Source: a bacterium (lineage in GTDB: Bacteria > Arandabacterota > Arandabacteria > Arandabacterales > Arandabacteraceae). Taken from it: a DNA stretch of 37,941 bases. The stretch covers positions 1 to 37,941 of the forward strand of contig DATKKY010000328.1 of the NCBI GenBank assembly GCA_035542695.1, read 5' to 3'. This document shows, in pieces, positions 13,773 through 34,179 of this stretch (within the stretch, counting starts at the first letter, position 1; each line of letters starts with the position of its first letter). Both the position numbers and the translations under genes were made by a program. The notes beneath the pieces were generated by a model. That model did no database searches. It saw nothing but the letters and a program-made list of their open reading frames with translations, and was not told where the DNA came from.

Positions 13773-14104
13773 CCTTCACCTCTTGGTCGGGACTCGTCGA
13801 GAGCACGACCGCCTAGTCTGATTCGGCTGTCGGCCCAGGCTGCTTTAGAATCCGGGCGGCAGTAAGCCCCGCCACATCTTGGGTATATTAACACACGGGG
13901 CTGTGGTCCGCACCCCAGGTTGGCTGCCTCCAGCCGGAGCGCCGCTGGGGGCGCCAAAGAACCGCTGGAAACCCTTGATCTCGTCATGTAAACTTGTTTA
14001 GGTAGCTTTGGTTGGGATATGCCGACAGGCCGGCCCGCTCAGGGCCGGCTGCGTTCGAAGCTTGCAGTGGAGCATACTGCTGGCTCGTACATGAAGGGTC
14101 AACC

Positions 14105-14560: not shown

Positions 14561-16920
14561 AGGGCCCCGAAAACACAATTGAATGCGATTTTAAGCCGAG
14601 GACACTCAAGACCGAGGGCGGCTTCGAGACCGGCAATACCCGCCACGCCTGGGACTACGCCAAACTGCGCGCCGCCCACAAGCTGCTGCGCGAGTACAAA
14701 TACGAGAAACGCCCGGTGGTCCGCGGTTATGCCGGCCGCACACTGTACGTCAATCTCACCACCAACGAGATCAAGGAGAAGCCGCTTACCGATGAGATGA
14801 AGCACCTCTTCACGGGCGGCAAGGGGTTCGACCTCAAACTCCTGTATGACGCCATCAAGCCTACCACCAGATGGGACAGCGAAGAAAACGAGCTGGTGCT
14901 TGCTGCCGGGCCGCTCTGCGGCACTACGCAGTACTCGGGCATGGGCAAGTGCTTGGCCGCCACCGTTTCCCCCCTGACCGACATCATCTGCGACTCCAAT
15001 GCCGGCGGCTACTACGCACCCTACCTCAAGTTTGCGGGCTTTGACGCCATCGAGATCCAGGGCAAGGCCGCTGAGGACGTCGCCATCATTGTGGACGGCA
15101 ATGAGGGTGTCGTGAGAATCGAGACCGCTCCCCTGGAGGAGGTCAATTCCCATCTCCTGGCCGAACAGCTGACCTACCTCTTTGCCGCAGAAGACAGCGA
15201 GAGCGCCAGGCAGAAGGTCGCGGTGGTCTCATCGGGGCGCGGCGCCGAGCATTCCTATTGGGGCTGCCTCAACATCTCCTTCTACGATCCACGGCGCAAG
15301 GTGGCCAGGCTCAAGCAGCATGGGCGTGGCGGCCTGGGCACCGTCTTCAGGAACAAGAAACTCAAGGCCCTGGTCGCGCGGGTCCCGGAGATGCATGGCC
15401 TCTTGAACAATCCGGCCGACCCGGACAAGGTCGCCGCCACGGGCGCCAGGCATCACATCGAGATGCGGGACCTGGATAAGAGCCAGTGCAACATGCGGGT
15501 GGTCGGCACGGGCAATATCGTCGAAGTGATGGATGCCTATGACCTCTTGCCGGTCGAGAACTACCGCTTCGGCTCATCGCCCAAGGCTGCCAACCTGCAC
15601 TCCAAGCACTTCTATAAGCGCTTCACGCAGGTCATACCCGATGGCTGCTGGTATGGCTGCACCATGGCCTGCGCCAAGGTGGTTGACGGTTTCACGGTGA
15701 TGACCGGCCCATACAAGGGCATGAGATTCTCGGTGGACGGCCCGGAGTATGAGAACTCGGGCGGCTGCGCCAACATGGGCCTCTTTGATCCCGACTGGGT
15801 GATCGAATGGAACTTCTACTGCGACTGTTACGGGATTGACACCATCTCCTTCGGCACGGGGACGGCTTTCTACTTGGAGATGTACGAGTACGGCATCCTT
15901 AATAAGGAGCGGACAGGCGGGTTGGAGTTGGTGTGGGGGAACGGGGAGGCGATCCTGGAGTTCATGCATCGGATCGCCCGGGGCGACCAGCATGAATTCA
16001 TCCAGGTGGCGGCAAAGGGTATTCGCAAGACCAAGGATTGGCTCAAGTCCAAGGGCTGGGGCGATCCCGACTTGATCGAGAACTGCGGCATGGAGAACAA
16101 GGGGCTGGAGTTCTCGGAATACATGTGCAAGGAATCGTTGGCGCAGCAGGGCGGCTACGGCCTGACCAACAAGGGGCCGCAGCATGACGAGGCCTGGCTG
16201 ATTTTCATGGACATGGTCAACAAGCAGATACCCACCTTCGCGGACAAGGCTGAGGCGCTGCACTACTTCCCGGTCTGGCGCACCTGGTTCGGCCTGGTCG
16301 GCCTGTGCAAGCTCCCCTGGAACGATGTGACTCCCCTCTCCAATGCCAAGGCCAAGGAACCTGCCAAGGTGCCCGAGCATGTCCAGAACTACGCCGATAT
16401 CATGTCCGGGACCCTGGGCGTGGAGGTCAAGCCCCAGGACTTGATCGACCAGAGTGAGCGCGTTTACAACTTCCAGCGCGCGATGAATGTCTGGATGGGC
16501 CGTGGAAGGCGGAAGGACGATTGGATTCCGTACCGGGCCAAGGGCCCCGTGACCGAGATCGAGTACCTGTCGCGGCAGGAGCGTTACGACAAGCAGCTGG
16601 TGGAGAACAAGCTGATCACCAAGGAAGCCCTGGCCAAGATGACGGCGCGCGAAAAGCGCGAGCTCCTGGCCTCCTACCGCGACGACCAGTACGAGAAGCT
16701 GACTGATGCAGTGTACTACCGGCGCGGCTGGACGCCCAACGGCATACCGACACCCCAGAAGATGAGAGCACTTGGCTTTGGCACCTACAAGGAGCTCCTG
16801 GATATGCTCCAGCAAAAGATCGACCAGGATGAGCGGGAGGGTCTCAACCAGTGGGGCGGCAAATACGGCAAGGGAGAGCAGCCTCCCACGACCAAGCCGC
16901 GGTATTGGGAGAAATGGTAA
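14557..16920 (+). CDS. Aldehyde:ferredoxin oxidoreductase family (tungstopterin) enzyme, unusually long at 787 aa
   Basis: AOR hallmarks: GYAGRTLYVNLT N-domain start, GPEYENSG (catalytic Glu region), CDCYGIDTIS (pterin-binding DxxGxD-type motif) and GLVGLCKLPW (cluster Cys region). GGGAGGG SD lies 7 nt before ATG 14557. Confidence 0.9.
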   Translation: MKGPENTIECDFKPRTLKTEGGFETGNTRHAWDYAKLRAAHKLLREYKYEKRPVVRGYAGRTLYVNLTTNEIKEKPLTDEMKHLFTGGKGFDLKLLYDAIKPTTRWDSEENELVLAAGPLCGTTQYSGMGKCLAATVSPLTDIICDSNAGGYYAPYLKFAGFDAIEIQGKAAEDVAIIVDGNEGVVRIETAPLEEVNSHLLAEQLTYLFAAEDSESARQKVAVVSSGRGAEHSYWGCLNISFYDPRRKVARLKQHGRGGLGTVFRNKKLKALVARVPEMHGLLNNPADPDKVAATGARHHIEMRDLDKSQCNMRVVGTGNIVEVMDAYDLLPVENYRFGSSPKAANLHSKHFYKRFTQVIPDGCWYGCTMACAKVVDGFTVMTGPYKGMRFSVDGPEYENSGGCANMGLFDPDWVIEWNFYCDCYGIDTISFGTGTAFYLEMYEYGILNKERTGGLELVWGNGEAILEFMHRIARGDQHEFIQVAAKGIRKTKDWLKSKGWGDPDLIENCGMENKGLEFSEYMCKESLAQQGGYGLTNKGPQHDEAWLIFMDMVNKQIPTFADKAEALHYFPVWRTWFGLVGLCKLPWNDVTPLSNAKAKEPAKVPEHVQNYADIMSGTLGVEVKPQDLIDQSERVYNFQRAMNVWMGRGRRKDDWIPYRAKGPVTEIEYLSRQERYDKQLVENKLITKEALAKMTAREKRELLASYRDDQYEKLTDAVYYRRGWTPNGIPTPQKMRALGFGTYKELLDMLQQKIDQDEREGLNQWGGKYGKGEQPPTTKPRYWEKW

Positions 16921-17537
16921 AGGGTCCGCCGCCTATGGACCAGGGTGAGAGGGCGAAGCTAGAGGCCAAGTTGCGCAAGGCCTCGGTCGGCATTGCCGGC
17001 GCCGGCGGTCTGGGTTCCAATGCCGCAGTGGCACTGGCTCGGGCGGGCGTCGGTCGTCTTGTGATCGTCGATTTCGACACGGTTGAAAAAAAGAATCTCA
17101 CCCGCCAGTACTATTTCCTCGATCAGGTCGGCAAACTAAAAGTCGAGGCTATCAAGGCAACAATCGAACGCGCTATTGAGGGTGTAAAGGTGGATGCGAT
17201 TGCCAAGAAGCTACTCCCCGGCGAAATGGCCGCACCCTTCAAGGACGTCGATGTGGTCGTGGAGGCCCTGGACGACGCTCAGACCAAGACCCGCTTCGTT
17301 AAGGAAGTGATGCGAGACCTGCCCGGGAAACCGGTGGTCGCGGCCTCTGGAGTGGCCGGCTGGGGAGGGTGCGAGAGAATTGAGCTCAAGAGATTCGAGC
17401 CGCTTCACCTGGTCTGCGACCAGCGCGCCAAGTCCAGCGATGAGGGCCTGCTCTTAGCGCCCAAGGTTTCTACACTGGCCAACATGCAAGCCAACGTGGT
17501 GCTGGAGCTCCTGCTGGGGACAGAAGATGTCCATTGA
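16914..17537 (+). CDS. thiF: ThiF/MoeB-type E1-like adenylyltransferase, short 'ThiF family 2' form
   Basis: VGIAGAGGLGSNAAVALARAGVGRLVIVDFDTVEKKNLTRQ, and later VVEALDDAQTKTRFV..PVVAASGVAGWG. No rhodanese domain. The start is ATG 16914 (7-nt overlap with AOR) or ATG 16935. Confidence 0.85.
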   Translation: MVKGPPPMDQGERAKLEAKLRKASVGIAGAGGLGSNAAVALARAGVGRLVIVDFDTVEKKNLTRQYYFLDQVGKLKVEAIKATIERAIEGVKVDAIAKKLLPGEMAAPFKDVDVVVEALDDAQTKTRFVKEVMRDLPGKPVVAASGVAGWGGCERIELKRFEPLHLVCDQRAKSSDEGLLLAPKVSTLANMQANVVLELLLGTEDVH

Positions 17538-19537: not shown

Positions 19538-19566
19538 TTGACAGCCGCCCTTCTGCGGAATAGAAT
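19538..19566 (+). promoter_or_regulatory. Sigma70-type promoter of the IclR/ACAD/ETF operon
   Basis: TTGACA (19538-19543), 17-nt spacer, TAGAAT (19561-19566), 50 nt upstream of the IclR start. Confidence 0.55.
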
Positions 19567-19615: not shown

Positions 19616-20359
19616 GTGAGCGACTCGGTCAAGCGAGCCTTCCGCATCGTCCGCCACCTGGCCGAAAAGGGACAGGCGGCTAGCCTGGCGGCCATCAGCC
19701 GCGACCTGGAGCTTAACAAGGCCACGGCCCTCAGGTATCTTGCAACCCTTGAGAATCTGGATGTTGTGGAGAGATGCGAAGGCGGCTACCGGCTGGGATT
19801 GGCTTTGTACGAGTTGGGCAATCGAGTTGCGGTCCGGCAGGTGGTGGTCGCCCGCGTTGACTCCCATATGCGCGACCTCTGCGAGGAAGTCAACGAGACG
19901 GTCAATCTGGCGCAGCTCTTTCGCGACCGGGCTCTTTACTTGCACAAGATCGAGAGCCGCCGGAGCCTCCAGATGCGGGCCGATCCCGGCAGCGAGCTGC
20001 CCCTCTACTGCACGGCCCTGGGCAAGGCCATTCTCTCGGCAGTAAATGGCGGCCGAGAGAAGGACTTGCTGGCAGGCATCACGCTCAAGCGCCACGCTCC
20101 AGCCACTATCATGTCTAAGACCCAACTCGCCCGTGAGATCGAAAGAGTGCGCCATATTGGATACGCGGTGGACCACGAGGAATTTGAAGTTGGCCTGACT
20201 TGTATCGCTGCGCCTTTGGTTGTTCCCGAGCACGATTTCTGCGGGGCCGTCAGCATCTCTGCGCCCACCCTGCGCATGCCGGAGAAGACCATCCGGAGCT
20301 GCTCCGAGAAGTTGCGCCGCACACGCGATATCATGCACCGGGTCCTGCTTGGTCAATGA
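19616..20359 (+). CDS. IclR family transcriptional regulator
   Basis: N-terminal wHTH region (AFRIVRHLAE..ASLAAISRDLELNKATALRYLATLE) and a C-terminal IclR effector domain (..LPLYCTALGKAILS..GYAVDHEEFE.GLTCIAAP). GTG start with an AGGTG SD. Confidence 0.85.
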   Translation: MSDSVKRAFRIVRHLAEKGQAASLAAISRDLELNKATALRYLATLENLDVVERCEGGYRLGLALYELGNRVAVRQVVVARVDSHMRDLCEEVNETVNLAQLFRDRALYLHKIESRRSLQMRADPGSELPLYCTALGKAILSAVNGGREKDLLAGITLKRHAPATIMSKTQLAREIERVRHIGYAVDHEEFEVGLTCIAAPLVVPEHDFCGAVSISAPTLRMPEKTIRSCSEKLRRTRDIMHRVLLGQ

Positions 20360-20370
20360 GGAGGTCGAAG

Positions 20371-21504
20371 ATGGACTTTGATCTGCCTAAGGATGTTGCG
20401 CTGGTGGGCCGCACCGTGCGCCAGTTCGCCGAGACCACGATCGCCCCGCTGGTGGCGGAGATGGAAGCCAGCCAACGCTTCCCGAGCGAGCTCGTCCGCC
20501 AGATGGGCGAAATCGGCATCCTGGGCCTGGTGATCCCGCCGAAGTACGGCGGCTCGGGTTTGGGGTATCTAGCCCGCACCGTGGCCATCGAAGAGGTGAG
20601 CCGGGTCTCCGCAGCCGTCGGCCTGGCGCTGCAGGTCCATCATATGGGAGCGGCCACCCTGGTGGAATTCGGTACTGAAGCCCAGAAGCGAAAGTACCTG
20701 CCGCCGCTGGCCCGCGGCGACTACTTGGGCACGTGCGCGATCACCGAGCCGACCGGCGGCTCGGACTTGCTCAGCATGGCCACCACCGCGGAACCTTCAG
20801 TCGGCGGCTATGTCCTGAACGGCCGCAAGTGTTTCATCACAAATAGCCACCTGTCCCAAGCACCGATCTTCGTTGCCAAGACCGGTGACGGCCCTAAGGG
20901 CTTGAGTGCCTTCGTCGTGGACGCGGGGACGGCCGGCTTCACGCCCGGCCGCGATGAGCACAAGCTGGGGCTTTGGGGCGCCAACACGGGCGAGCTGATT
21001 TTCAAGAATTGCCAGCTGCCCCAGCAGAATATGATTGGCAATGAAGGCGAGGGCATGACGATCGCGCTCAAGATCATCAGCGAAGTCGGGCGGGCCGGCA
21101 TGGCGGCTGTTGCCCTGGGCATCATTCAGGCCAGTTACGACGAAGCAGTCAAGTTCGCCAAGGAGCGGAATCTTTATGGCCGGCCGATTGCCCAGCTCCA
21201 GGCAATTCAGTGGCATGTGGCTGACATCTACGCCCAACTTGCAGCGTCACGCCTGCTTTGCTACAGGGCTTCTTGGCTGAAGGATGCGGGCCGGGACTGC
21301 GCCATCGAGACGACGCTCGGTAAGACTTACACGACCGATGCCGCGGTCAGCTGCGCCCGCAAGGCTCTGGAGATTCACGGCGGCTGCGGCTCGATGATGG
21401 AATATCCAGTGCAACGGCTCTTCCGCGACGCCATGGTCTGCGTTTCGGCCGGCGGCACCACTGAGATCGGCAAGCTGGTGATGGCGCGGGCTGCGCTCGC
21501 CTGA
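20371..21504 (+). CDS. Acyl-CoA dehydrogenase family protein (butyryl-CoA dehydrogenase-like fold)
   Basis: MDFDLPKD.., AITEPTGGSDL, CFITNS and GG..EYPV.RLFRDA motifs. GAGGAGG SD lies 6 nt before ATG 20371. The ORF-track start at 20200 is rejected because it overlaps IclR. Confidence 0.85.
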   Translation: MDFDLPKDVALVGRTVRQFAETTIAPLVAEMEASQRFPSELVRQMGEIGILGLVIPPKYGGSGLGYLARTVAIEEVSRVSAAVGLALQVHHMGAATLVEFGTEAQKRKYLPPLARGDYLGTCAITEPTGGSDLLSMATTAEPSVGGYVLNGRKCFITNSHLSQAPIFVAKTGDGPKGLSAFVVDAGTAGFTPGRDEHKLGLWGANTGELIFKNCQLPQQNMIGNEGEGMTIALKIISEVGRAGMAAVALGIIQASYDEAVKFAKERNLYGRPIAQLQAIQWHVADIYAQLAASRLLCYRASWLKDAGRDCAIETTLGKTYTTDAAVSCARKALEIHGGCGSMMEYPVQRLFRDAMVCVSAGGTTEIGKLVMARAALA

Positions 21505-21514
21505 GGAGACAGGC

Positions 21515-22369
21515 ATGGCAAAGACAGCCAAGAAAGCTAACAAGGTGAGCCCGGCTCGCGGCGCGCGCACCAAATTGCATATAGTGGTCTGCATCAAGCC
21601 CGTGCCCGACCCGGCAGCGTGGAGCAAGCTTAGGCTCCACCCCGACACCATGCTCCTCAACCGCGCCGAGCTTGGGGCAGTTATCAACCCTCTTGATCTC
21701 AACGCGATCGAGCAGGCTCTCGCGATCAAGGAGGCCTCAGCCGCCGGAATATCGGTGCTCACGATGGCTCCACCTGCCGCCGAGGACCAGCTGCGCGAGG
21801 CGCTGGCAATGGGCTGCGACGAGGCTTATCTCGCAAGCGACCGCGCCTTCGCCGGCGCTGACACACTCTCCACCGCGCGCTGTCTGGCTGCAGCGATCCG
21901 CAAGATCGGCGATGTCGATCTGGTCTTCTGCGGAGCCTACTCGGCCGACGGCAGCACCGCCCAAGTCGGACCACAAATCGCCGAGCTGCTCGAGATGCCT
22001 GACCTCACCCATGTGGTAGGCATTGAGATGGTCCCAGGCGGGCTGCGGGTGGTCTGCAAAGTGGAAGACGGTACGGTGGCCGCCGAATGTGGGTTCCCGG
22101 CGCTCCTGACCTTTGACCGTGAAGCCAACCGGCCGCGGCTCGCTACTATGCCGGGCATCCGCCGGGCCCGAGGGTTGGCAGTTATCTCATGGACCGCAAC
22201 CGACCTCGGCCTCGACCCGGCCCTTACGGGACTCCAAGGATCGCCGACTCAGATGCTCAATGTGTTCACGCAGCCGACAGGCCGCAAAGGCGAGATGCTG
22301 AGCGGCAGCGCCGCGGAGATGGCCGAGAACTTACTTGCAAGGCTGCATGCTGCCAAGGTGCTGGAGTGA
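21515..22369 (+). CDS. etfB: Electron transfer flavoprotein beta subunit
   Basis: HIVVCIKPVPD, NPLDLNAIEQAL, GADTLSTA, DLVFCG..S.DG.TAQVGP.IAE and a GLQGSPTQ arm of the clostridial/Fix-like type. GAGGAG-N6-ATG. Confidence 0.9.
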   Translation: MAKTAKKANKVSPARGARTKLHIVVCIKPVPDPAAWSKLRLHPDTMLLNRAELGAVINPLDLNAIEQALAIKEASAAGISVLTMAPPAAEDQLREALAMGCDEAYLASDRAFAGADTLSTARCLAAAIRKIGDVDLVFCGAYSADGSTAQVGPQIAELLEMPDLTHVVGIEMVPGGLRVVCKVEDGTVAAECGFPALLTFDREANRPRLATMPGIRRARGLAVISWTATDLGLDPALTGLQGSPTQMLNVFTQPTGRKGEMLSGSAAEMAENLLARLHAAKVLE

Positions 22370-22379
22370 GGAGAAAGCA

Positions 22380-24896
22380 ATGTCGCCGGTGACAGCCAGA
22401 CCGAGCGATAGTGGAGCCAAGCAGGCAGCCGGGACGATTTGGGTGCTTGCCTCGCACCACGACGGCAGGGTGGATACTGTCGCGCTGGAGCTTCTGGGCA
22501 AAGGCGCCGAGCTGGCAGCGAGGGGTAACCTCACTCTGGAGGCCGTGATTTTCGGGAGCCTGGCTGGCGGCCTGGCCGAAGAACTCCTGGACTGGGGGCC
22601 GGCCGTGGTCCACTGGGTCGGCGATCCGCGGCTCGATGTCTTCTCAAGTGTCACCTATGCCTGGGCGCTGGCCGAGCTGGCGCGGCGCCACCGCCCGGAA
22701 ATAATCCTGCTCGGTTCGGACAGCCGTAACGCGTCGCTCGCTGCGCGAGTAGCTGCGCGGCTCGGCACCGGGCTTTCGGCTCACTGCATCGATATCAAGT
22801 TGGAACGCGGCCTGCTGGTCCAGACCGTACCCGGCTTCGGCGGCAACATCCTGGCCAACATCGTCTGCCCCGAGGCCCGGCCTCAGATGGCAACCGTTAC
22901 GCCAGGCGTTTTCCGGGCGGTCCGGACGCGCCGCCATGGGGCCAGAGTCGTGAAGACCGAAGTACCCATCCCCGACGGGCTGCGGAACGCAAGCCTCCGG
23001 GAAACTCGACGGCGGGAAAGTCGAGCCAGCCGTGCCGTCGAGAAGGCCGAGATTGTGGTGGCTGGTGGGTTTGGCGTCGGCAGCCGCGAGAATTGGACGC
23101 TCCTCGAGGAATTGGCATCGGTCCTCAAGGCTGCGGTCGGTGCGACGCGCCCGCCGGTGGATGAGGGGTGGGCTGCTGCCGAGCAGATGATCGGCGCCAG
23201 CGGCAAGGTGATTGCCCCCAAACTCTACATCTGCGCCGGGGTGTCCGGCATGATGCACCATACCGTGGGCATACAGCGCGCCAAGACGATTGTAGCTATC
23301 AATAGCGATCCCAGGGCACCTATTTTCGCTGCAGCTGACTACGGCCTGGTAGGCGACCTCAGAGAAGTGCTGCCCGCACTCACCCATCGGCTGCGGACGG
23401 GCCAAGCGCTGGCTCGCGAGATCCAGCCGCCTGAGAATACTCGGACGGCCGGGGAATTCCGTGAGAGCCTGCGCCGGATGACGCCCAACATATACAAGTT
23501 CGGCACTCTGATCGAGGACCCGGTATCCGACCCGCGGACGCGGCGCACGGTCGAGGGGCATGCTCAGATCTACGAGGCTGCGCGCGATCCCCGTTACCAG
23601 GACTTGCTTACCACAGTCTCTCATCTGACCGGCAAGCGGGTTTCCCGGTACCTGTCTATTATCAGATCGCCGGAGGACATGTTCGCCAACAGCCGCCTCA
23701 AACGGCTGATGTTCCAGTTGACCGGCACTTGCACCGGCGGCAGGTGCGCCGGGTGGGCCGCGCTTAACGCCATGTGGTCCACCACCTGGGACATCGACAA
23801 GCAGCATGGCACTAACTACCACCAGCGGCTCCAGAATTGGCTAGCTGATGCGCAGGCCCGCGATATCGCGGTGGCGGGAGCGCTGACCGACGCCAAGGGC
23901 CAACGCCGCCTGGCACCTTCCAAGCAGCCTGATCCCGACATGTACTTGCATGTGATCGAACGTCGTCCGGATGGGATCGTGGTGCGGGGCGCCAAGGTGA
24001 TGATCTGCGGCACAGCTGCCGCCAACGAGATATTCGTGATGCCTACCACCCGCTTGAGGCGGGATGATGCGGACTACGCCGTCTCCTTCGTCATTCCCAA
24101 GGACACACCGGGGCTGACGATTGTGGAGGCCCGCCACGCATCAGACATTCGCGACCTGGATGAGGGATTCGACAATCCGGTGGCCCACGGTGGTATCACC
24201 CAAGCCTACCTCTTCTTCGACAAGGTCTTTGTGCCGACCGAACGGGTTTTCATGAACGGCGAGTACGATTTCGCTGGTGAGGCTGTCTTCCGCTTCACAT
24301 TGCCCTACCGGTCGGCCATCGGCGGTTGTGTTGCCGGGCAGGGCGATGTGATGATCGGCGCATCGATCCTGATCGCGCGAGCCAACGGGCTTGACGAGAA
24401 GGTATTCCGCGACAAGCTGACTCAGATGATAATCAACAACGAGACCACTTTCGGCATGGGCATCGCGGCGGCCGTGATGGGCAGCGCCCACCCGTCGGGC
24501 GCGTGGCTGCCCGACCCGGTGCTGGCTCACGCCACCAAGGTCCACGTGGCAACGCTGCCCTATGAGACCAAGCGGCTGACCCAGGAGATCGCGGGGGGAA
24601 TTGCCGAGACCGGGTGCATGCCTTCGTACGAGGATTTCATGAGCGGCTCGTACGGTCACCTGATTCAGAAGTATCTGAAGGCCAATTCCCCGGCTGAGAC
24701 CCGTATGCGTGTAGCGCGATTGATCGAATGGCTGACGCTGGGCGCCGGTGTGCCGGGCTGCATGCACGGTGGCGGCTCGCCAGACGGAGCCCGAATGACA
24801 GTCTGGTCCGAGGCCAGACTGGACGAGATGATAGAGATGGCCAAGCGGATCGGCGGCATCTCCGACATATCGCTGGCCAAGCCTCCAGGCAAATAG
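22380..24896 (+). CDS. Fusion protein: electron transfer flavoprotein alpha subunit (N-terminal) plus a 4-hydroxybutyryl-CoA dehydratase/vinylacetyl-CoA isomerase (AbfD/HpaB-family) module (C-terminal)
   Basis: The EtfA part has IWVLASHHDG.., VVAGGFGVGS and LYICAGVSGMMHHTVGIQRAKTIVAINSDPRAPIF..DYGLVGDL. The AbfD-like part has FRESLRRMTPNIYKFG, GTNYH, GALTDAKGQRRLAPS, PDGIVVRGAK, DYAVSFV, YDFAG, ETRMRVARL and HGGGSP. It is one uninterrupted frame. GAGGAG-N6-ATG at 22380. Confidence 0.85.
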   Translation: MSPVTARPSDSGAKQAAGTIWVLASHHDGRVDTVALELLGKGAELAARGNLTLEAVIFGSLAGGLAEELLDWGPAVVHWVGDPRLDVFSSVTYAWALAELARRHRPEIILLGSDSRNASLAARVAARLGTGLSAHCIDIKLERGLLVQTVPGFGGNILANIVCPEARPQMATVTPGVFRAVRTRRHGARVVKTEVPIPDGLRNASLRETRRRESRASRAVEKAEIVVAGGFGVGSRENWTLLEELASVLKAAVGATRPPVDEGWAAAEQMIGASGKVIAPKLYICAGVSGMMHHTVGIQRAKTIVAINSDPRAPIFAAADYGLVGDLREVLPALTHRLRTGQALAREIQPPENTRTAGEFRESLRRMTPNIYKFGTLIEDPVSDPRTRRTVEGHAQIYEAARDPRYQDLLTTVSHLTGKRVSRYLSIIRSPEDMFANSRLKRLMFQLTGTCTGGRCAGWAALNAMWSTTWDIDKQHGTNYHQRLQNWLADAQARDIAVAGALTDAKGQRRLAPSKQPDPDMYLHVIERRPDGIVVRGAKVMICGTAAANEIFVMPTTRLRRDDADYAVSFVIPKDTPGLTIVEARHASDIRDLDEGFDNPVAHGGITQAYLFFDKVFVPTERVFMNGEYDFAGEAVFRFTLPYRSAIGGCVAGQGDVMIGASILIARANGLDEKVFRDKLTQMIINNETTFGMGIAAAVMGSAHPSGAWLPDPVLAHATKVHVATLPYETKRLTQEIAGGIAETGCMPSYEDFMSGSYGHLIQKYLKANSPAETRMRVARLIEWLTLGAGVPGCMHGGGSPDGARMTVWSEARLDEMIEMAKRIGGISDISLAKPPGK

Positions 24897-24929: not shown

Positions 24930-27665
24930 TTACTTAAGCACCACCATTTTTCGACTGACTGACTTGTCCCCGGACTCGAGCAAGCACCAGTAAACGCCAG
25001 CCGCGACCCTGCGCCCGGCCTGGTCTTGGCCGTTCCACACGACGTCATGCTTGCCGGCATCCAGCTTCTGGTTGACCAGCGCGGCCAGCTCCCGCCCGCG
25101 GACATCATAGATGCCAAGCTTTACATCCGCCGACTTAGGAAGGCTGAAAGCAATCCTGGTCGAGGAGCCGAAAGGATTCGGGGTGTTCTGAGAAAGCATC
25201 AGCTGTCCCACAGAACCCCCGTCCACAACTCCTGCCGCATTGTAGGGTTCGCCGAAGATGTGACGCAGGATGTACTCGCAGTTGGACCTCATCGCTGCAT
25301 GGTTATATCTATACGGCCGTCCCGATATGAAGACGCACTGGCCGCCATCGGGCCTGACCGTGCCCGGCAGCGACGGATGTCGCCACACGCCGAGGCCCCT
25401 GGGCACCGCGAAAAGAGTGAGTTGCACGAAGATGGTCCGGCTCTCACCGCCCACGCTCGAGGTATCGAAAACCGCGTTGTAGGATTGCGTGCCCAGCTTG
25501 GCCATGTCAACCAGCCCGGTGTACACACTGGTCGCCCTGCCCGTGGTGTTCTGCGCCGCCTCAGCCCACTGGATGCCCAGGTACTCCCGCAGGGATTCAT
25601 ACACGAAGTCCTGGCCCATGCGGGTCAAGAGCAGCACGTTGCCGCCTGCCTTGAGATAGCCCATGATCGGGGCGTTATACCATGACGCCAGGTCTCCATC
25701 GTAGTTGTTCCCGATCCAGACCACTGCCGAGAACCGCTTGAGCGTATCCGCCGGGACATCGCCGTGGCCAAGAGGATGAGGCAGATTCGAAGGATAACCG
25801 CCCGACGGAGCAGCGAAAATGTCCCAGAAGCTTATCGGGAGCGATCCCCAGAAGATGCTGTCCGCATAGGCGGTAGTTATCTCCGTCCCGTAGGAGCTCC
25901 ACTCAACGCCATTGACCACCAAGATGCCGCGGTCCAGCCTGGCATCCGCCATGGAACCAGACACCATCCTCAGAATCCACTCATCCTTGTCCAGATCGAC
26001 TTTGGTAGGCTGGTCGTTCACTGCCAGAGTGAACTGCTGCGTGGCGAGCGAGTCTCCGACGACCAAGGTCGTCTCGCCGACTGCCGTGGTCACGGCGATC
26101 CGGATCGGCATATTGAAGACGTAATTCTGCTGGAGCTGGCTGATGTCGAGCGTAATCGAATAGCCTCCGCCGACCGGATCGGAGCTCCAGGAGTACATGT
26201 ACTCCGGGAAGCCTTCCTCGTAAATCCACTCATGGAAGAACTGATGAAGATCGCGGCCCGAGACCTGCTCGCAGATGTCTCTGAATTCCTCGGTGGTGCA
26301 AGAACCATACTCGTACTGACTGGTGTGGTAGGTCTTGAGGATACTGAAGAAGGTGGAATCGCCCACAACGCCGCGGAGCATGTGAAGCACCCACGATGCC
26401 TTATTGTAGCTCAGATTGGAATCAAAGATGCGGTCCCAGTCGGAGAGATCCGGACAATAGATAGTCCCTGGACCCAAGTACTTGGCAGATTGCATCTGCT
26501 GTTCGTAGGCGCTCCAGCCATAGGCGTGCTCGGCCCAAAGGGCTTCTGCGTAGGTGGCAAAGCCCTCGTTGAGCCAGACATGATTGAAGGTCTTGCAGGT
26601 AATCATGTCTCCCCACCACATGTGGGAAAGCTCATGGCAGACTATGTACTCGGCCCAGGCCCCGAGGCTGGTGCAAGTCTGGTGCTCCATGCCGCCGCTC
26701 CAATTGAACTCGGCCTGACCGTATTTCTCGTTGATGAAGGGGTACTGGCCGAAGTAGCCCGCAAAAGCCGTTATCATGTCCGGGACCATGTTGCAGAGCC
26801 CCGTGACCGAACTTACGTGGTCGGGATAGATGAAGTTGCGGATCTCCATCGAGTCGGTCGGCGAGTAGTGGTAGTACCTCGAAAACACTGTGTAAGGATA
26901 TATCGCCACCGATACGAGATAGGTGGCGATGGGGTAGCGCTCCGCCCAGTTATAGGTCTTGGTGCCATCTCCGTTGTCCGTGGTGGACCGTAGCAGCCCG
27001 TTGGAGGCCACGATCAAACTGCTTGGGACCCTTATCGAGATATCAACCGAATCGGCCTTGTCATCCGGGTAATCCTTGCAGGGCCACCAGGAGCGGGCCC
27101 CAAAGGGCTCGCTCAGACTCCAAATCAAGTCCAGCCCGGCGTGAGTGTCGAAACCGAACGCTCCCGCCGAGGAGGACGGCGTGCCGTGGTAGGTAATGTC
27201 GAAGGCGAGGTGCTCGCCGGTCGAGTAGGCCCGGTCCAGCGTAATGGTGAGGATGTCATTGGCATGGGAGTTCGCCAAGAGGCCCCCTCCCACTGCCTTG
27301 ACCGAGTCGACCACCATGTTGGTGTAAAGGTCCACGTCAACCGAAGAGATCGGGCCAGCCACCACCTGAGCCTCCATCCTGACCGTCCCCGAAACTATCT
27401 TCGTGCTGGGAGTCATAGTGAGGTTAAGGTGATAGTAAGAGACATCGTAGGATGCCTGACTGGCCGTCATCTGGGTCTCCCGGGCAGCCATCCTAGCGAA
27501 GAATCTGGCCTTCGCCTGGGCAAGCTGCCTGGACACGTCTCCCATCCTTTCAGGCGGGCCCGAGACAGGCTGGGCGAGGGTGACCCCAGCCCACAAGAGG
27601 GCGGCAAGCGCAACCAATGACCAAGCCCAGCGACGAGCCGAAGCCTCAAAGATCAAGCGGAACAT
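24930..27665 (-). CDS. Secreted M1-family zinc aminopeptidase with an extra alpha/beta-like domain and a FlgD-Ig/T9SS-type CTD
   Basis: Signal peptide; GGMEH (GAMEN-like) at aa 324-328; HELSH at aa 344-348 with NEGFATY 18 residues later (HEXXH-X18-E). CTD: LSQNTPNPFGSSTRIAFSLP..KLGIYDVRGREL..GVYWCLL. Confidence 0.9.
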   Translation of the reverse strand: MFRLIFEASARRWAWSLVALAALLWAGVTLAQPVSGPPERMGDVSRQLAQAKARFFARMAARETQMTASQASYDVSYYHLNLTMTPSTKIVSGTVRMEAQVVAGPISSVDVDLYTNMVVDSVKAVGGGLLANSHANDILTITLDRAYSTGEHLAFDITYHGTPSSSAGAFGFDTHAGLDLIWSLSEPFGARSWWPCKDYPDDKADSVDISIRVPSSLIVASNGLLRSTTDNGDGTKTYNWAERYPIATYLVSVAIYPYTVFSRYYHYSPTDSMEIRNFIYPDHVSSVTGLCNMVPDMITAFAGYFGQYPFINEKYGQAEFNWSGGMEHQTCTSLGAWAEYIVCHELSHMWWGDMITCKTFNHVWLNEGFATYAEALWAEHAYGWSAYEQQMQSAKYLGPGTIYCPDLSDWDRIFDSNLSYNKASWVLHMLRGVVGDSTFFSILKTYHTSQYEYGSCTTEEFRDICEQVSGRDLHQFFHEWIYEEGFPEYMYSWSSDPVGGGYSITLDISQLQQNYVFNMPIRIAVTTAVGETTLVVGDSLATQQFTLAVNDQPTKVDLDKDEWILRMVSGSMADARLDRGILVVNGVEWSSYGTEITTAYADSIFWGSLPISFWDIFAAPSGGYPSNLPHPLGHGDVPADTLKRFSAVVWIGNNYDGDLASWYNAPIMGYLKAGGNVLLLTRMGQDFVYESLREYLGIQWAEAAQNTTGRATSVYTGLVDMAKLGTQSYNAVFDTSSVGGESRTIFVQLTLFAVPRGLGVWRHPSLPGTVRPDGGQCVFISGRPYRYNHAAMRSNCEYILRHIFGEPYNAAGVVDGGSVGQLMLSQNTPNPFGSSTRIAFSLPKSADVKLGIYDVRGRELAALVNQKLDAGKHDVVWNGQDQAGRRVAAGVYWCLLESGDKSVSRKMVVLK

Positions 27666-27874: not shown

Positions 27875-27912
27875 ACCTGGCCGGAGTCGTGGACCGGCCA
27901 GAGGAAAAGCGT

Positions 27913-29280
27913 GTGAATCCCACATTGGTCAGGAAGGCAATCTATCCGGCCTATCGGGCCGCAAAGCGGGATAAGGTGCTCTCCCTTGGCGCTCGGATGC
28001 GCCAAGTCGCAGGGATGGAGGCCGAGCAAATCCAGCAGTATCAGTGGGAAAGCGTGCAGCGCCTTATCACCTATGCAGCCCAGCACGTGCCTTACTATCG
28101 CAAGTTGTTCGCCGACCTGGGCGTTCAGGTGAGGGATTTCAAGCAGCTCGCCGACATCACCGCTCTGCCCGTGCTCCGCAAGCGGGACATCCGGGACAAC
28201 TTCAAGGATCTGCAATCCGAGATCTACCCGAGGGAGCGCCTCCGCTATGACAGCACAGGCGGCTCCACCGGTCACAACCTCTACTTCTACTATGACCAGG
28301 CATCGTCGGAGGCCCGGCGCGCGGCCTACGTCGAAATGAATGAATGGATAGGGATCCACATTGGCGACCGCACGGCATACCTATGGGGAACGGCTTTCGA
28401 TGCCTCAAGCTCCGCCAAGATCAAGCACTGGATAAAGGCCCAGTTCACCAACGAACTGATGCTGTCGGCGTACACCATGGACCCGGTGAGCGTCGAGCTA
28501 TACACCAGGAGACTCTCGCAGTTCAGACCTCGGGCGATTGTCAGCTACCCCTCAGCGCTCGCTCATTTCGCTCAATCCGCCAAGGCAAGCGGCAAGACCT
28601 TGTTCAGACCTTCGGTGGTCGTAGTCTCGGGTGAGACTCTGTTTGACTGGCAGAGGGAAACGATTGAAGAGGCTTTTGGAGCTAAGGTGTACAACCATTA
28701 TGGCTGCCGCGAATTCGGCGCCATGGCGAGGGAGTGCCGGATACGCGACGGGCTGCACCTGGCCAGCGACCGGCTGCTCGTCGAGGTTGTCCCCGCCGCC
28801 AGATCATCCAGCGGAGAGGAGATAAGCGAACTGGTGGTCACTGACCTTGACAACTACGGCATGCCCTTCATCAGATATGCGATCGAAGATGTGGGCGAGA
28901 TCACCTGGGAGAGGTGCGCGTGCGGGCTCCGCCTCCCGAGGCTTCGGAGCGCCATCGGCAGGACTCTCGACGTGGTCAGGGCTCCCAACGGCAACTTCCT
29001 GGGAGGCACCTTCTGGACGATCCTGTTGCGCAAGGTCAAGGGGGTCGCGCAGTTCCAGGTGATCCAGGACAAGCTTGACTCGGTCACCATTGCGATCGTT
29101 CCAACGCCCGAGTTCTCGGATGATAGCCGCTCTTACGTCCTCAGCAAGATCCGCGAAGCCTGTGGTCCCGGGCTCGTAGTGCACTTCGACCTAAAGGATA
29201 AACTTGAGACCACCGGCGCCGGCAAGCACCGCTTCGTGATTTCCCGCATCGGACTCGGTCCCAACCCCACCCATAAGTAA
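27913..29280 (+). CDS. Phenylacetate-CoA ligase family adenylate-forming enzyme (PaaK/CapK/F390-synthetase-like)
   Basis: YDSTGGSTG (AMP-binding P-loop-like motif), NHYGCREFG and VTDL.NYGMPFIRY. A GTG start at 27913 follows GAGGA by 7 nt. The alternative GTG at 27889 would be nearly leaderless. Confidence 0.75.
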   Translation: MNPTLVRKAIYPAYRAAKRDKVLSLGARMRQVAGMEAEQIQQYQWESVQRLITYAAQHVPYYRKLFADLGVQVRDFKQLADITALPVLRKRDIRDNFKDLQSEIYPRERLRYDSTGGSTGHNLYFYYDQASSEARRAAYVEMNEWIGIHIGDRTAYLWGTAFDASSSAKIKHWIKAQFTNELMLSAYTMDPVSVELYTRRLSQFRPRAIVSYPSALAHFAQSAKASGKTLFRPSVVVVSGETLFDWQRETIEEAFGAKVYNHYGCREFGAMARECRIRDGLHLASDRLLVEVVPAARSSSGEEISELVVTDLDNYGMPFIRYAIEDVGEITWERCACGLRLPRLRSAIGRTLDVVRAPNGNFLGGTFWTILLRKVKGVAQFQVIQDKLDSVTIAIVPTPEFSDDSRSYVLSKIREACGPGLVVHFDLKDKLETTGAGKHRFVISRIGLGPNPTHK

Positions 29281-31524: not shown

Positions 31525-32322
31525 TTAGGTCTGCTTCCTGATCTTCCTCGCAAAAGCAAGATAATCCTTGAAGGAAGGGTCACGGCCCAGCAGAGCCCGC
31601 ACGGCGATGCGCTCCGCCACAATCTCCCGATCCAACGGGTCAAGAATCGCGGCGTCCAAACCCCTCATCGAGGCAAGCGCCAGCAAGGCCCGGTTGAGCA
31701 GGCGCCGCTGGGGAAGTCCGAAGGATACATTGCTGATCCCGGCTACTGTCCCAACCTGGGGAAAACGCTGCTTGATCCGATCGAGGGAGTCCAGGAAGAG
31801 CGTGACGGCCTGCTCATCGACACTGACGGGCCTGACCAAGGGATCAAGGAAGATGTCATGGGCAGCAACCCCGGCCCTGGTCAAGACTTCGATCAGGCGA
31901 CCGGCAATTGCTACCTCCTGCTCGGCGGTGGTGGGGATACCTTGATCATCAAGGCACAGAGCAATCACCCGCGGCCTGTGCTCTTGGATGAGCGGCAGGA
32001 ACCGCCGCACCCGCTCGGTCTCGCCAGTCAAGGAGTTGAGGAGCGCCTGCCCCTTGTGAAGCCTGAGGCCGGCTTCCATGGCTTCCAAGTTGGGAGTATC
32101 GATTGAGAGCGGCACCCTGAGCTTGCCCTGAACGAGCGGGATGATCCACGTCAAGACCTCAGTCTCACGACCCAGCACGGCTGCCGCATTGATATCTATG
32201 TAGTCGGCTCCGGCTCGCTCCTGAGCCGCGGCTTCCTTCAGAACGTATGCGGCGTTCCGGTCACGCAAGGCCTCCAGAACCGGCCGCCGGCTCGAGTTCA
32301 GTCGCTCGCCTATGATGATCAC
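31525..32322 (-). CDS. Stand-alone pterin-binding domain protein (methyltetrahydrofolate methyltransferase, AcsE / MetH-folate-domain-like)
   Basis: The N-terminus (M)IIIGERLNSS...AGADYIDINA is the hallmark start of MeTr/MetH pterin-binding barrels. GTG start 15 nt after the upstream stop. Confidence 0.8.
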   Translation of the reverse strand: MIIIGERLNSSRRPVLEALRDRNAAYVLKEAAAQERAGADYIDINAAAVLGRETEVLTWIIPLVQGKLRVPLSIDTPNLEAMEAGLRLHKGQALLNSLTGETERVRRFLPLIQEHRPRVIALCLDDQGIPTTAEQEVAIAGRLIEVLTRAGVAAHDIFLDPLVRPVSVDEQAVTLFLDSLDRIKQRFPQVGTVAGISNVSFGLPQRRLLNRALLALASMRGLDAAILDPLDREIVAERIAVRALLGRDPSFKDYLAFARKIRKQT

Positions 32323-32337
32323 GGTCCCACCCGGCGC

Positions 32338-34179
32338 TTACAGCGCCTCCAGCACCTCGGTCACTATGTCGTACTTGCCCAACGGCGGACTTATCTGGAT
32401 GCCTTGCACCATTCCCTTCACGGCTTGGAGCGTTTCGCGGGCAATCGCTATGCCTTCCCGTCGCGCAGCCTCGGGGCCAGCATCCTGTGCCTTCCTCATT
32501 CGCTCCATGGTCGCGGGTGGGACCCGTGCCCCAGGCACTTCGTTGTGCATGAACTCAGCATTTCTGAGGCTGGCCAGCGGCCAGATGCCTGCCAAGACCG
32601 GAATCCTCTGGCGATCAATTCGCCTGAGAAACTGCTCGAGCAAACCCAAGTCGAAAACCGGCTGAGTGATCGCGAATTCCGCACCGGCCCCGACCTTGGC
32701 CTCAAAGCGCGCGATCTCGTGGTCGAGGTCGATCGCCCCGGGATTGGCTCCGACACCAACCAGGAAGCTGGTGGGCGGCGAGAGCCGACGCCCACCGACG
32801 TCGATCCCTTTGTTGAGACAGGCCACCATGCCCACCAAGCCGATCGAATCCACATCGAAGATGGCTGTGGCATCCGGATAGTCGCCCAGCTTGGGAGGAT
32901 CGCCGGTCACGACCAGCAGATTCCTTATGCCCTGGGCATACATGCCCAGCAAATCCGATTGCATACCCAGCAGGTTGCGATCACGGCAAGTATAATGGAG
33001 CAGCGGCTCCATCTTGGCCCGTTCGAGCAGGATGCACGCAAGAATCATGGAGCTCATGCGGGCGCTCGCCCGGGGCCCATCAGGTATGTTGACACAATCG
33101 ATGCCTCGCTCTTTGAGTGCCCGAGCTGTCTCCACGGCTCCGGTGGGATCTGGCCCTCGGGGAGGCACCACCTCCACGCTGACCACGAAGCCGCCTCCAG
33201 CCAGCTTCCGGCCGAGCTCGGACTTGTCCTCAAGTGCTATCCGAGGCTGCTCAGGCTTGGGCTCGGCGACGGCCGCAAGGTGGACCAGCTTCCGCCGGGT
33301 CGGCTGGAGAGCCTTTATCGCAGCCCTCATAGCCTTGGTATGAGCAGGTGTAGTACCGCAGCAACCACCCACGATCTTGACGCCGCTCAGGATGAATCGT
33401 TTGGCGTACTCGGCCATGTACTCCGGCGAGCACAGGTAGATGTTCCTCCCTTCCACTTCCCGAGGCACCCCGGCGTTCGGCATTGCGGAGAGCGGCAGCT
33501 CCGTGACCTTGGCCATTTTCTCAATGCACTCATACATGTGGGCCGGCCCCACGCTGCAGTTGACTCCGACGACGTTGGCTCCCCACTCTTCGAGCTTGCC
33601 CGTGAAGACTTCGGGCGTGGTGCCATAGAGGCTATTGCCGTCGTCTTCGATGGTCATCTCGGCGACGATCACGGCGTCCCGGTCAAGCCCCCGAACAGTC
33701 TTGATCGCCTGATGAATCTCGTTGAGATCCGAGAAAGTCTCGAGAATCAGAAAATCCACTCCGCCTTCGATAAGCGCCTGCGCCTGCTCGGCGAAGGCGG
33801 CCTTGGCGTCCGTGACCGAAAGATGGCCCCAGGGCTCGATCTTGACCCCCAGCGGACCGATCGAACCGGCGACCAGCACTGTTGCCCCGGCCTCGCTCCG
33901 GGCCAGATGGGCGCCCGCGCGGTTCACCTCGGCGACCTTGCTCTCAAGTCCGAAGCCTCGCAGCTTGTGCCGATTGGCACCGAAGGTGTTGGTCTCGATG
34001 ATGTCCGCGCCGGCCGCGACATATGCTCGGTGGACTTCCGCGACTAGATCGGGATTGGCGAGATTGAGCTCATCGAAGCAGCAGTTGAGATAGACACCTT
34101 TGGAGTAGAGCATGGTGCCCATGGCACCGTCCGCGAGGAGCACACGCTCGGCGAGCAGGTCCAGCAGTCGTCTGTCTAT
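32338..34179 (-). CDS. Bifunctional homocysteine S-methyltransferase / 5,10-methylenetetrahydrofolate reductase (YitJ-like)
   Basis: Hcy domain: LLADGAMGTMLY, ADIIETNTF, VGVNCS and VGGCCGTTPAH (Zn Cys ligands). MTHFR domain: VSVEVVPPRG, LLHYTCRDRN and NLLVVTGDPP. The conservative start is GTG 34143. Homology-like sequence (IDRRLLDLLAER) continues upstream to an ATA at 34179 that has a perfect SD, so the start is unresolved. Confidence 0.85.
   Translation of the reverse strand: MDRRLLDLLAERVLLADGAMGTMLYSKGVYLNCCFDELNLANPDLVAEVHRAYVAAGADIIETNTFGANRHKLRGFGLESKVAEVNRAGAHLARSEAGATVLVAGSIGPLGVKIEPWGHLSVTDAKAAFAEQAQALIEGGVDFLILETFSDLNEIHQAIKTVRGLDRDAVIVAEMTIEDDGNSLYGTTPEVFTGKLEEWGANVVGVNCSVGPAHMYECIEKMAKVTELPLSAMPNAGVPREVEGRNIYLCSPEYMAEYAKRFILSGVKIVGGCCGTTPAHTKAMRAAIKALQPTRRKLVHLAAVAEPKPEQPRIALEDKSELGRKLAGGGFVVSVEVVPPRGPDPTGAVETARALKERGIDCVNIPDGPRASARMSSMILACILLERAKMEPLLHYTCRDRNLLGMQSDLLGMYAQGIRNLLVVTGDPPKLGDYPDATAIFDVDSIGLVGMVACLNKGIDVGGRRLSPPTSFLVGVGANPGAIDLDHEIARFEAKVGAGAEFAITQPVFDLGLLEQFLRRIDRQRIPVLAGIWPLASLRNAEFMHNEVPGARVPPATMERMRKAQDAGPEAARREGIAIARETLQAVKGMVQGIQISPPLGKYDIVTEVLEAL

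Follow-up and report, generated by a model that had tools for sequence, protein, structure and literature searches.

Organization of the locus

We analysed a 37,941-nt stretch of bacterial DNA (contig DATKKY010000328.1, assembly GCA_035542695.1; hereafter the window), in which a single open frame of 838 codons on the forward strand (22380-24896) joins the alpha subunit of an electron-transfer flavoprotein (ETF), EtfA, to a module related to AbfD, the 4-hydroxybutyryl-CoA dehydratase (4HBD) of Clostridium aminobutyricum. An earlier note on this DNA had read the frame as a complete EtfA followed by an AbfD/HpaB-family protein and had suggested profile searches with the Pfam models ETF, ETF_alpha, HpaB_N and HpaB. 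All four models matched over their full length, at residues 20-192, 220-299, 356-625 and 633-824, respectively, with E-values from 1e-29 to 1e-82 (HpaB_N 1.5e-82, HpaB 7.6e-44), which bears out the completeness of the EtfA part. This part (residues 1-338, nt 22380-23393) consists of domain I, corresponding to the ETF match, and the shuttle domain for the flavin adenine dinucleotide (FAD) called a-FAD, which corresponds to the ETF_alpha match and extends to residue 338, its last residues reading LPALTHRL. It is followed by the linker RTGQALAREIQPPENTR (residues 339-355, nt 23394-23444), in which the pattern TG...P..TR[TS] was semi-conserved over the fused clade; its length of 17 residues had been given correctly before, while the position (23395-23445) had been one base off. 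The remaining residues, 356-838 (nt 23445-24896), form the AbfD-like module with HpaB_N and HpaB, as defined by Pfam, by matches in the PDB and by the residue tables described below.

The fusion is the last of four closely spaced genes on the same strand. The first encodes an IclR-family regulator of 247 aa (19616-20359; Pfam HTH_IclR and IclR_C, with every NCBIfam match under its cut-off), the second a paralogue of the short-chain acyl-CoA dehydrogenases (ACADs) of 377 aa (20371-21504, ATG at 20371) with all three Pfam ACAD domains, and the third EtfB, of 284 aa (21515-22369), with a Pfam ETF domain and, from its closest PDB matches, of the bifurcating type. The intergenic gaps were 11, 10 and 10 nt, and TGAGGAG was present at all three junctions, where the stop codon TGA of the upstream gene overlaps GAGGAG; the distance from there to the next ATG is 7 nt between IclR and ACAD (20357-20373) and 6 nt both between ACAD and EtfB (21502-21517) and between EtfB and the fusion (22367-22382). 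These coordinates agree with the tight operon proposed in the earlier note, and the GAGGAG signal that it described was found at all three starts, although the spacer of six nucleotides holds for the last two and the first has seven. The fusion, EtfB and the ACAD, which lacks the catalytic Glu (see below), are probably co-transcribed and translationally coupled. Upstream of the IclR gene lies a promoter-like site of the sigma-70 type, TTGACA-17-TAGAAT (19538-19566, + strand), with 11 of 12 consensus matches; two such sites were found in the region against 1.2 expected, and the assignment is a consensus match alone. The IclR gene was unconserved elsewhere, other loci having TetR or cupin regulators, and the gene downstream of the fusion is convergent and encodes an M1 peptidase with a type IX secretion system (T9SS) tail.

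Distribution and origin of the fusion

Searches over a space of 5.8 billion proteins (JGI, ENA, NCBI and Logan assemblies, clustered at 90% identity) recovered the same four-domain protein in more than 100 independent clusters, with lengths of 815-877 aa and identities of 64-85%. Where the source names the organism, these clusters come from Eisenbacteria, Acidobacteria/Vicinamibacteria, Elusimicrobia, Bacteroidales and a candidate division. When species-representative genomes were scanned, relatives were found in 300 genomes, and among the best 80 loci, which were inspected, the fusion was intact in 28 genomes, with the order ACAD-EtfB-fusion every time. The earlier note had suggested looking for the fusion in related metagenome-assembled genomes (MAGs). 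As the fusion recurs in more than 100 clusters that are independent and differ in sample and phylum, misassembly is excluded. An artefact of this contig only, be it a misassembly, a sequencing error or a lost stop codon, is vanishingly improbable, for although frameshifts do occur in some related long-read loci (L004, L012 and L025), the intact fusion with its semi-conserved linker was found both in these clusters and in the 28 genomes. The operons of those three loci are broken by frameshifts into an ACAD-EtfB chimera, a split ACAD (L012) and a split EtfA, leading to spurious 'unfused' or oddly fused database calls; the close 'unfused' copies P0105 and P0108 (L025 and L004) were rejected as genuine, being frameshifted long-read assemblies of this kind.

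At 50% identity (1.84 billion proteins), the whole family was covered by one full-length representative, and none of the top 150 matches in that search was an independent fusion of EtfA to an HpaB-family protein. No published description of the EtfA-AbfD-like fusion or of the AbfD-like subfamily was found in full-text literature searches, in line with the earlier suggestion that the architecture is undescribed, and we know of no ETF described before in which the mobile a-FAD shuttle is covalently tethered to a large flavoenzyme partner. Using the unfused protein of the Desulfobacterota type as query, no cultured host was found among the 120 matches listed, all of which were metagenomic or MAG-derived.

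At six loci, the same components are encoded by four separate genes in the order ACAD-EtfB-EtfA-AbfD-like, namely in Desulfobacterota (L030, L032, L036 and L038), Anaerolineae (L034) and Anaeroferrophillacea (L037). The gap between the EtfA and AbfD-like genes in these unfused operons was 3-75 nt at the five boundaries examined, and the linker of the fused proteins aligns with the C-terminal tail of EtfA and the N-terminus of the AbfD-like protein ('M.[IL]KTR' in the unfused versus 'TR[TS]' in the fused proteins). A neighbour-joining tree of the AbfD-like domains, rooted on the two solved 4HBDs and calculated without support values, placed the fused proteins in one monophyletic clade, suggesting that the fusion probably arose once. 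This clade was nested among unfused proteins of Dehalococcoidia, of Zixibacteria/Ignavibacteria/Thermoplasmatota and of Desulfobacterota/Anaerolineae, and a long branch separated the whole subfamily from both solved 4HBDs. The simplest origin of the fusion would be the loss of a stop codon between adjacent etfA and abfD-like genes. In the fusion, an association that is left to neighbouring genes in other lineages has become covalent.

ETF subunits

Both ETF subunits were closest to structurally characterized bifurcating ETFs, in keeping with the bifurcation in clostridia that the earlier note had mentioned. The top five PDB matches of the EtfA half were all bifurcating (7koe_B, 5ol2_A, 6fah_A, 4kpu_A and 7qh2_A, 2e-66 to 1e-54), with non-bifurcating ETFs at 1e-37 or weaker, while EtfB best matched CarD, C. 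difficile EtfB and the proteins of T. maritima and A. fermentans as well as LctB (1e-57 to 1e-39), with non-bifurcating ETFs at about 1e-23 or weaker. The motif DGDTAQVGP in EtfB is the recognition motif for b-FAD and is missing from non-bifurcating ETFs (PMC9232219). The EtfB of the window has DGSTAQVGP (nt 21947-21973), which agrees at eight of nine positions, and the change of D to S was kept across the fused clade. Elsewhere, the motif reads DGDTGQVGP in Dehalococcoidia, DG[AS]TEWVGP in Desulfobacterota/Anaerolineae and D[LM]FSGQ[IV]GP in archaea, the archaeal ETFs at these loci having largely lost it.

EtfB also carries an insertion of three residues within PVPDPAAWSKL (nt 21599-21640). 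The form PVPDPxxWxKL was common to the fused clade and Desulfobacterota/Anaerolineae only; the insertion was absent from CarD, from C. difficile EtfB and from the archaeal EtfBs. At its N-terminus, EtfB has a Lys/Ala-rich extension of 21 residues, MAKTAKKANKVSPARGARTKL (nt 21515-21577), which solved EtfBs do not have.

Active site of the AbfD-like module

The closest solved structures to the C-terminal half were C. aminobutyricum AbfD (1u8v, 8e-106) and the Nitrosopumilus 4HBD (6vjr, 7.5e-100). An HpaB-type two-component flavin monooxygenase was rejected as an identity for the module: the HpaB monooxygenases in the PDB matched at 1e-35 or weaker, TIGR02309 scored 141 bits against a cut-off of 480, and the cluster Cys are kept. 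To compare the active sites, we rebuilt the AbfD numbering from the printed alignment (R90, C99, Q101, C103, T190, E257, H292, Y296, C299, K300, E455 and A460) and applied it to 78 AbfD-like domains, 28 of them fused, 6 from Desulfobacterota/Anaerolineae, 3 from Dehalococcoidia, 14 from Zixibacteria/Ignavibacteria and 27 archaeal. In 4HBD, C99, C103, C299 and H292 are the ligands of the [4Fe-4S] cluster, and T190, E257, Y296 and E455 play an important part in dehydratase activity (bioRxiv 10.1101/2020.02.05.935528).

All 78 domains, bacterial and archaeal, retained the three cluster Cys, spaced C-x4-C instead of C-x3-C, and all 78 showed the replacements T190C, E257Q, H292Y, Y296I and K300V together with the deletion of E455; both solved 4HBDs keep all the canonical residues. 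Beside the deleted E455, S456 is replaced by Cys, and another Cys lies within a 2-residue insertion, again in all 78. The protein of the window therefore has six invariant Cys, of which C451, C456 and C650 (fusion numbering) are the retained cluster residues, while C543 (at the T190 position), C746 (in the insertion) and C794 (at the S456 position) are new, and Y643 occupies the position of H292. H394 and H704 are new invariant His, and K373, K441, E583, E743 and Y758 are further new invariants; R90 and many charged residues shared with AbfD were also invariant in the subfamily. Since C99, C103 and C299 are kept and new invariant residues are present, the site has been remodelled and has not decayed, and the module is a paralogue of its own under strong constraint, to be taken neither for a canonical dehydratase nor for a copy in decay. 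The assignment of the C-terminal half to the AbfD/HpaB family thus stands, but that to the specific enzyme does not: from these residues the module is probably not a 4-hydroxybutyryl-CoA dehydratase, and the AbfD chemistry leading to crotonyl-CoA that the earlier note ascribed to it is at odds with the loss of the H292 ligand and of T190, E257, Y296 and E455.

The partner acyl-CoA dehydrogenase

The ACAD of the operon, to which, together with EtfAB, the earlier note had ascribed the reduction of crotonyl-CoA, best matched 5lnx (7e-97) and C. difficile butyryl-CoA dehydrogenase (Bcd; 5ol2_C, 1.5e-86) in the PDB. However, Gly361 (nt 21451-21453) stands at the position of the catalytic Glu (E376 in medium-chain acyl-CoA dehydrogenase), within 'SAGGT' where 'IYEGT' is usual. 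The alternative Glu position of the isovaleryl-CoA dehydrogenase type, before the Arg of helix G, is also Gly, and 'GGCGS' replaces the usual 'GGYGY'. Lacking the canonical catalytic Glu, the protein is not an ordinary butyryl-CoA dehydrogenase. The FAD and substrate motifs AITEPTGGSD and FITN were kept in the alignment. A base relocated to 'SEVGR' was considered and rejected, the acidic residue there probably being the conserved Asp of 'LDGGR' and missing in L034.

The Glu was lost in all operon-linked bacterial ACADs, the site reading 'SAGGT' in the fused clade, 'PSAGT' or 'PAGGT' in Desulfobacterota/Anaerolineae and 'MGGGT' in Dehalococcoidia, while the canonical Glu was present in the archaeal ACADs and in second ACADs adjoining some triads. 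A neighbour-joining tree of the ACADs, again without support values, joined the Glu-less proteins of the fused clade and of Desulfobacterota/Anaerolineae in one clade mirroring the AbfD-like tree, with the Glu-less ACADs of Dehalococcoidia branching elsewhere, which gives a weak hint that the residue was lost twice independently, convergently in Dehalococcoidia.

Gene neighbourhood

ETF genes were present at 54 of the 67 informative loci, in four arrangements: the fused operon, the collinear unfused operon, AbfD-like-ACAD-EtfB-EtfA in Dehalococcoidia and ACAD-ligase-EtfB-EtfA-DUF6125-AbfD-like in Thermoplasmatota. Clustering of the neighbours of 82 loci showed an AMP-forming acyl-CoA ligase in 23. 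Other recurrent neighbours were family-I CoA transferases and an ADP-forming acyl-CoA synthetase, and CoA ligases or transferases stood directly beside several operons. Elusimicrobia had a Pta-Ack fusion and a nitroreductase, archaea a B12 acyl-CoA mutase with its adenosyltransferase, and peptide-binding proteins, a dipeptidase and a class-III aminotransferase were further neighbours. The operon context is that of acyl-CoA and fermentative metabolism.

Several of these neighbours deserve mention in their own right. The DUF6125 protein, of about 179 aa and with a CxxC among its five Cys, has its gene exactly between etfA and that of the AbfD-like protein in L059 (4876-5415, + strand); some 22 further loci, most of them from Thermoplasmatota, have it at the equivalent position, as does L018. 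In the archaeal loci it occupies the place of the fusion's linker and could be an adaptor or a small metalloprotein. Directly downstream of the fusion and on the same strand, several Elusimicrobiota loci, as well as L004, carry a nitroreductase-family gene (L003:10472-12985, L028:9824-10378; also L004, L020 and L031), which, following after some 2-8 nt in L028 and L003, may be a further member of the operon there. The ETF-less Zixibacteria/Ignavibacteria loci have a gene for an EB_dh-domain protein (haem-binding, like the gamma subunit of ethylbenzene dehydrogenase) directly preceding the AbfD-like gene (L044:8781-9875, L075:8825-9847 and related loci), and this protein could be an alternative electron partner. 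A GAF-SpoIIE protein (PP2C phosphatase) is encoded at a median distance of about 1.2 kb from the AbfD-like gene in ten loci, mostly of Zixibacteria/Ignavibacteria (for example L077:2439-4214), and a homologous architecture occurs in the window (5705-7432, − strand), 15 kb upstream, which may be a coincidence or a regulatory link.

Comparison with known systems

Bcd-EtfAB of C. difficile and Acidaminococcus fermentans (5OL2, 4KPU and 4L2I) resembles the operon in that ACAD, EtfB and EtfA are encoded together and in having the closest ETF subunits. It differs in having no third flavoenzyme, whereas in the window the ACAD is Glu-less, EtfB has the 3-residue insertion and EtfA carries an AbfD-like module of about 480 residues on its shuttle. 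AcrABC of Clostridium propionicum provided the best NCBIfam matches of the EtfA half (AcrA, 5e-60) and of the ACAD (AcrC, 2e-108) and the second-best of EtfB (AcrB, 6.5e-61), but all of these scores were far under the equivalog cut-offs (203 versus 600, 362 versus 640 and 206 versus 475, respectively), and AcrABC has no AbfD-like component.

With AbfD (1U8V) and the Nitrosopumilus 4HBD (6VJR), the module shares the full-length HpaB_N/HpaB fold, C99, C103, C299 and R90, and it is set apart by H292Y, T190C, E257Q, Y296I, K300V, the deletion of E455, the C-x4-C spacing, three additional Cys and two additional His. Furthermore, the reaction of AbfD is redox-neutral, so that an enzyme of that type would not need an ETF, whereas the subfamily is ETF-linked. 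An EtfA fused to an Fe-S module that takes part in electron transfer is also found in the caffeyl-CoA reductase CarCDE (6FAH) and in LctBCD (7QH2); in those proteins, however, a small ferredoxin domain has been added at the N-terminus, beside the ETF base, whereas here the addition is an ACAD-fold flavoprotein of about 55 kDa, attached C-terminally to the shuttle. ETF-quinone oxidoreductase (ETF-QO) and FixCX contain one FAD and one [4Fe-4S] cluster and are fed by the a-FAD of ETF. They offer a functional analogy for an ETF-coupled FAD/Fe-S partner, but their fold is unrelated, they are membrane- or quinone-linked and they are not fused to EtfA.

Proposed function and alternative explanations

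The conserved ETF linkage, at 54 of the 67 loci, argues for a net exchange of electrons and not for a redox-neutral dehydration. We propose a role for the AbfD-like protein as a FAD/Fe-S oxidoreductase coupled to ETF, a dedicated docking partner of the shuttle that acts on a CoA thioester, a proposal in which, on the residue patterns and gene order described above, we have even confidence. The C-terminal segment of EtfA is a mobile shuttle domain that holds a-FAD and swings by about 75 degrees between b-FAD and the d-FAD of the partner, and a functional Ldh-EtfAB has been made with a C-terminal tag on EtfA (PMC9232219). Because this segment is mobile, the 17-residue tether would keep a-FAD within reach of the FAD/[4Fe-4S] site of the AbfD-like module. 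Electrons would pass from NADH to b-FAD in EtfB, to a-FAD in the EtfA shuttle, to the FAD and Fe-S cluster of the AbfD-like module and on to a short-chain CoA thioester, or in the reverse direction, with ferredoxin as the other acceptor should the ETF prove to be bifurcating. The AbfD-like protein is proposed as the docking partner because the ETFs at these loci, which differ otherwise, share the a-FAD shuttle side. Tyr, Cys and His serve as proton donors in reductases such as old yellow enzyme, FadH and dihydropyrimidine dehydrogenase, and since the exchange of Glu/His for Tyr/Cys/His resembles these donors, the reductive direction would be favoured for the module. The Glu-less ACAD would serve either as a core like that of Bcd, binding the ETF base and passing electrons on, or as the enzyme of the next step; this is the least certain part of the proposal.

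Several observations weigh against the proposal as a whole. Thirteen of the 67 informative loci, in Zixibacteria, Ignavibacteria and a few archaea, had no ETF within 4-10 kb, so that ETF coupling may not be universal. Bifurcation itself is not assured, since the change of D to S in the b-FAD motif affects the position that was mutated in a b-FAD-deficient Ldh-EtfAB variant (PMC9232219). The FAD and Fe-S content of the module is expected from homology alone, and the AlphaFold2 model of the whole fusion, built on an alignment of 25 sequences, was too poor to place the three new Cys in space (mean pLDDT 60.9, falling under 50 over most of the C-terminal half; pTM 0.43). None of the neighbours across the 82 loci defined a substrate, no gene beyond the triad being universal and the acyl-CoA genes being generic. 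It is conceivable that the new bases H394, H704, E583 and E743 allow chemistry of the dehydratase type again, on a different hydroxyacyl-CoA, and the role of the Glu-less ACAD is left unexplained by the model.

Were the module a functional 4-hydroxybutyryl-CoA dehydratase/vinylacetyl-CoA isomerase and the complex to which it is tethered a bifurcating crotonyl-CoA reductase of the Bcd/EtfAB type, 4-hydroxybutyryl-CoA would be channelled through crotonyl-CoA to butyryl-CoA. This reading would fit AbfD being the closest solved structure, the three retained cluster Cys and the resemblance of the ACAD and ETF to Bcd/EtfAB and AcrABC; the newly invariant His and Glu might serve as bases, and at one Vicinamibacterales locus the upstream genes for a class-III aminotransferase and a CoA transferase recall the fermentation of omega-amino acids. 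We nevertheless consider such channelling improbable, given that H292, T190, E257, Y296 and E455 are invariantly replaced or deleted, that the ACAD has no catalytic Glu to protonate or deprotonate C-alpha, that neither a 4-hydroxybutyrate dehydrogenase nor an AbfT-type transferase was conserved near the operons examined and that a redox-neutral dehydratase has no evident need of a conserved ETF. The loss of every acid/base residue would fit a module that is a substrate-less electron relay or outlet with FAD and Fe-S, comparable to ETF-QO/FixCX or to the CarE/LctC ferredoxin domain. In such a module, the three new Cys would supply a fourth cluster ligand or a second metal centre in the old pocket. 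Two of these Cys fall on, or adjoin, residues that were once catalytic (T190, and S456 as the neighbour of E455). In Ldh-EtfAB, the EtfA-borne ferredoxin domain works as a redox relay (PMC9232219), and in the archaeal loci the canonical ACAD could be the source of electrons and the AbfD-like protein their sink. Against such a relay, which we regard as rather unlikely, R90 and the many invariant charged residues suggest that the CoA/FAD scaffold was kept, the newly invariant His, Glu and Tyr have the look of catalytic residues, several operons directly adjoin genes for CoA ligases or transferases, and the stand-alone copies of Zixibacteria and Ignavibacteria would be easier to explain as an autonomous enzyme.

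The alpha2beta2 ACADs of Mycobacterium provide a precedent for a heteromer with one type of catalytic subunit, and the Glu-less ACAD and the AbfD-like module could likewise form one heteromeric enzyme, in which the fusion to EtfA would mainly fix stoichiometry and assembly. Both proteins have the ACAD fold, their trees are congruent and their genes co-evolve, the Glu was lost only in ACADs tightly linked to an AbfD-like gene (possibly twice independently), and in 4HBD the FAD sits at the interface between monomers (bioRxiv 10.1101/2020.02.05.935528). However, AbfD-like proteins of archaea, Zixibacteria and Ignavibacteria have the identical residue signature without a Glu-less ACAD, and the ACAD keeps the AITEPTGGSD and FITN motifs, unlike typical non-catalytic ACAD subunits, so that we think a heteromer of this kind unlikely.

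The host and other features of the window

The closest relatives of the fusion, at 79-85% identity, came from Ca. Eisenbacteria. Elsewhere in the window, a tungsten-type aldehyde:ferredoxin oxidoreductase of 789 aa with AFOR_N and AFOR_C domains is encoded at 14012-17537 (+), with a poly-ferredoxin subunit encoded ahead of it and a ThiF/MoeB-like gene behind, a locus that indicates a ferredoxin-based anaerobic metabolism of the host. FlgD_ig/Por_Secre_tail (T9SS) sorting domains form the C-termini of two large secreted proteins (1-1857, +, and 24930-27665, −), of which one is the M1 peptidase, and the window also encodes S49 and M42 peptidases. These features suggest an anaerobic, proteolytic member of the FCB group, similar to Eisenbacteria.

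The window also contains a frame combining homocysteine S-methyltransferase and methylenetetrahydrofolate reductase domains (32338-34143, −), adjoined by a separate pterin-binding protein (31525-32322, −), such that the methionine-synthase/folate modules are split and rearranged. Radical SAM enzymes and a CoA-transferase pair are present, and two frames of 581 and 463 aa (10493-12238 and 27889-29280, both +) have a coding-like GC content at third codon positions and no Pfam match.

Implications

The AbfD-like subfamily comprises thousands of environmental sequences from at least eight phyla of bacteria and archaea, and it differs from 4HBD at every residue tied to catalysis. NCBI names these proteins by domain only, while JGI calls them '4-hydroxybutyryl-CoA dehydratase/vinylacetyl-CoA-Delta-isomerase' (P0003-P0104 and P0275-P0386). 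EC 4.2.1.120 is used in MAG surveys as the diagnostic enzyme of the dicarboxylate/4-hydroxybutyrate and 3-hydroxypropionate/4-hydroxybutyrate carbon-fixation cycles (e.g. PMC9802188). Applied to proteins without H292, T190, E257, Y296 and E455, the JGI name risks false calls of 4-hydroxybutyrate carbon fixation and of butyrate pathways, which a filter on these five catalytic residues would prevent.

States in which an ETF is docked to its partner are hard to capture (PMC9232219), and the fusion offers a natural tether for trapping and studying them. That the partner ACAD has lost its catalytic base, possibly on two independent occasions, points to a joint mechanism. On a broader and more tentative view, which we hold as a possibility falling short of an even chance, the AbfD-like subfamily may represent a new class of ETF-dependent FAD/[4Fe-4S] radical enzymes, in which the tethered shuttle would deliver single electrons (possibly as products of bifurcation) for a net reduction or other redox conversion of a CoA thioester beyond the reach of ordinary ACADs, with the Glu-less ACAD as an obligatory second flavoprotein. 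If this is true, the fusion would belong to a new type of bifurcating or ETF-coupled complex that is widespread in uncultured anaerobic bacteria and archaea and is at present mislabelled as a marker of CO2 fixation or gamma-aminobutyrate fermentation.

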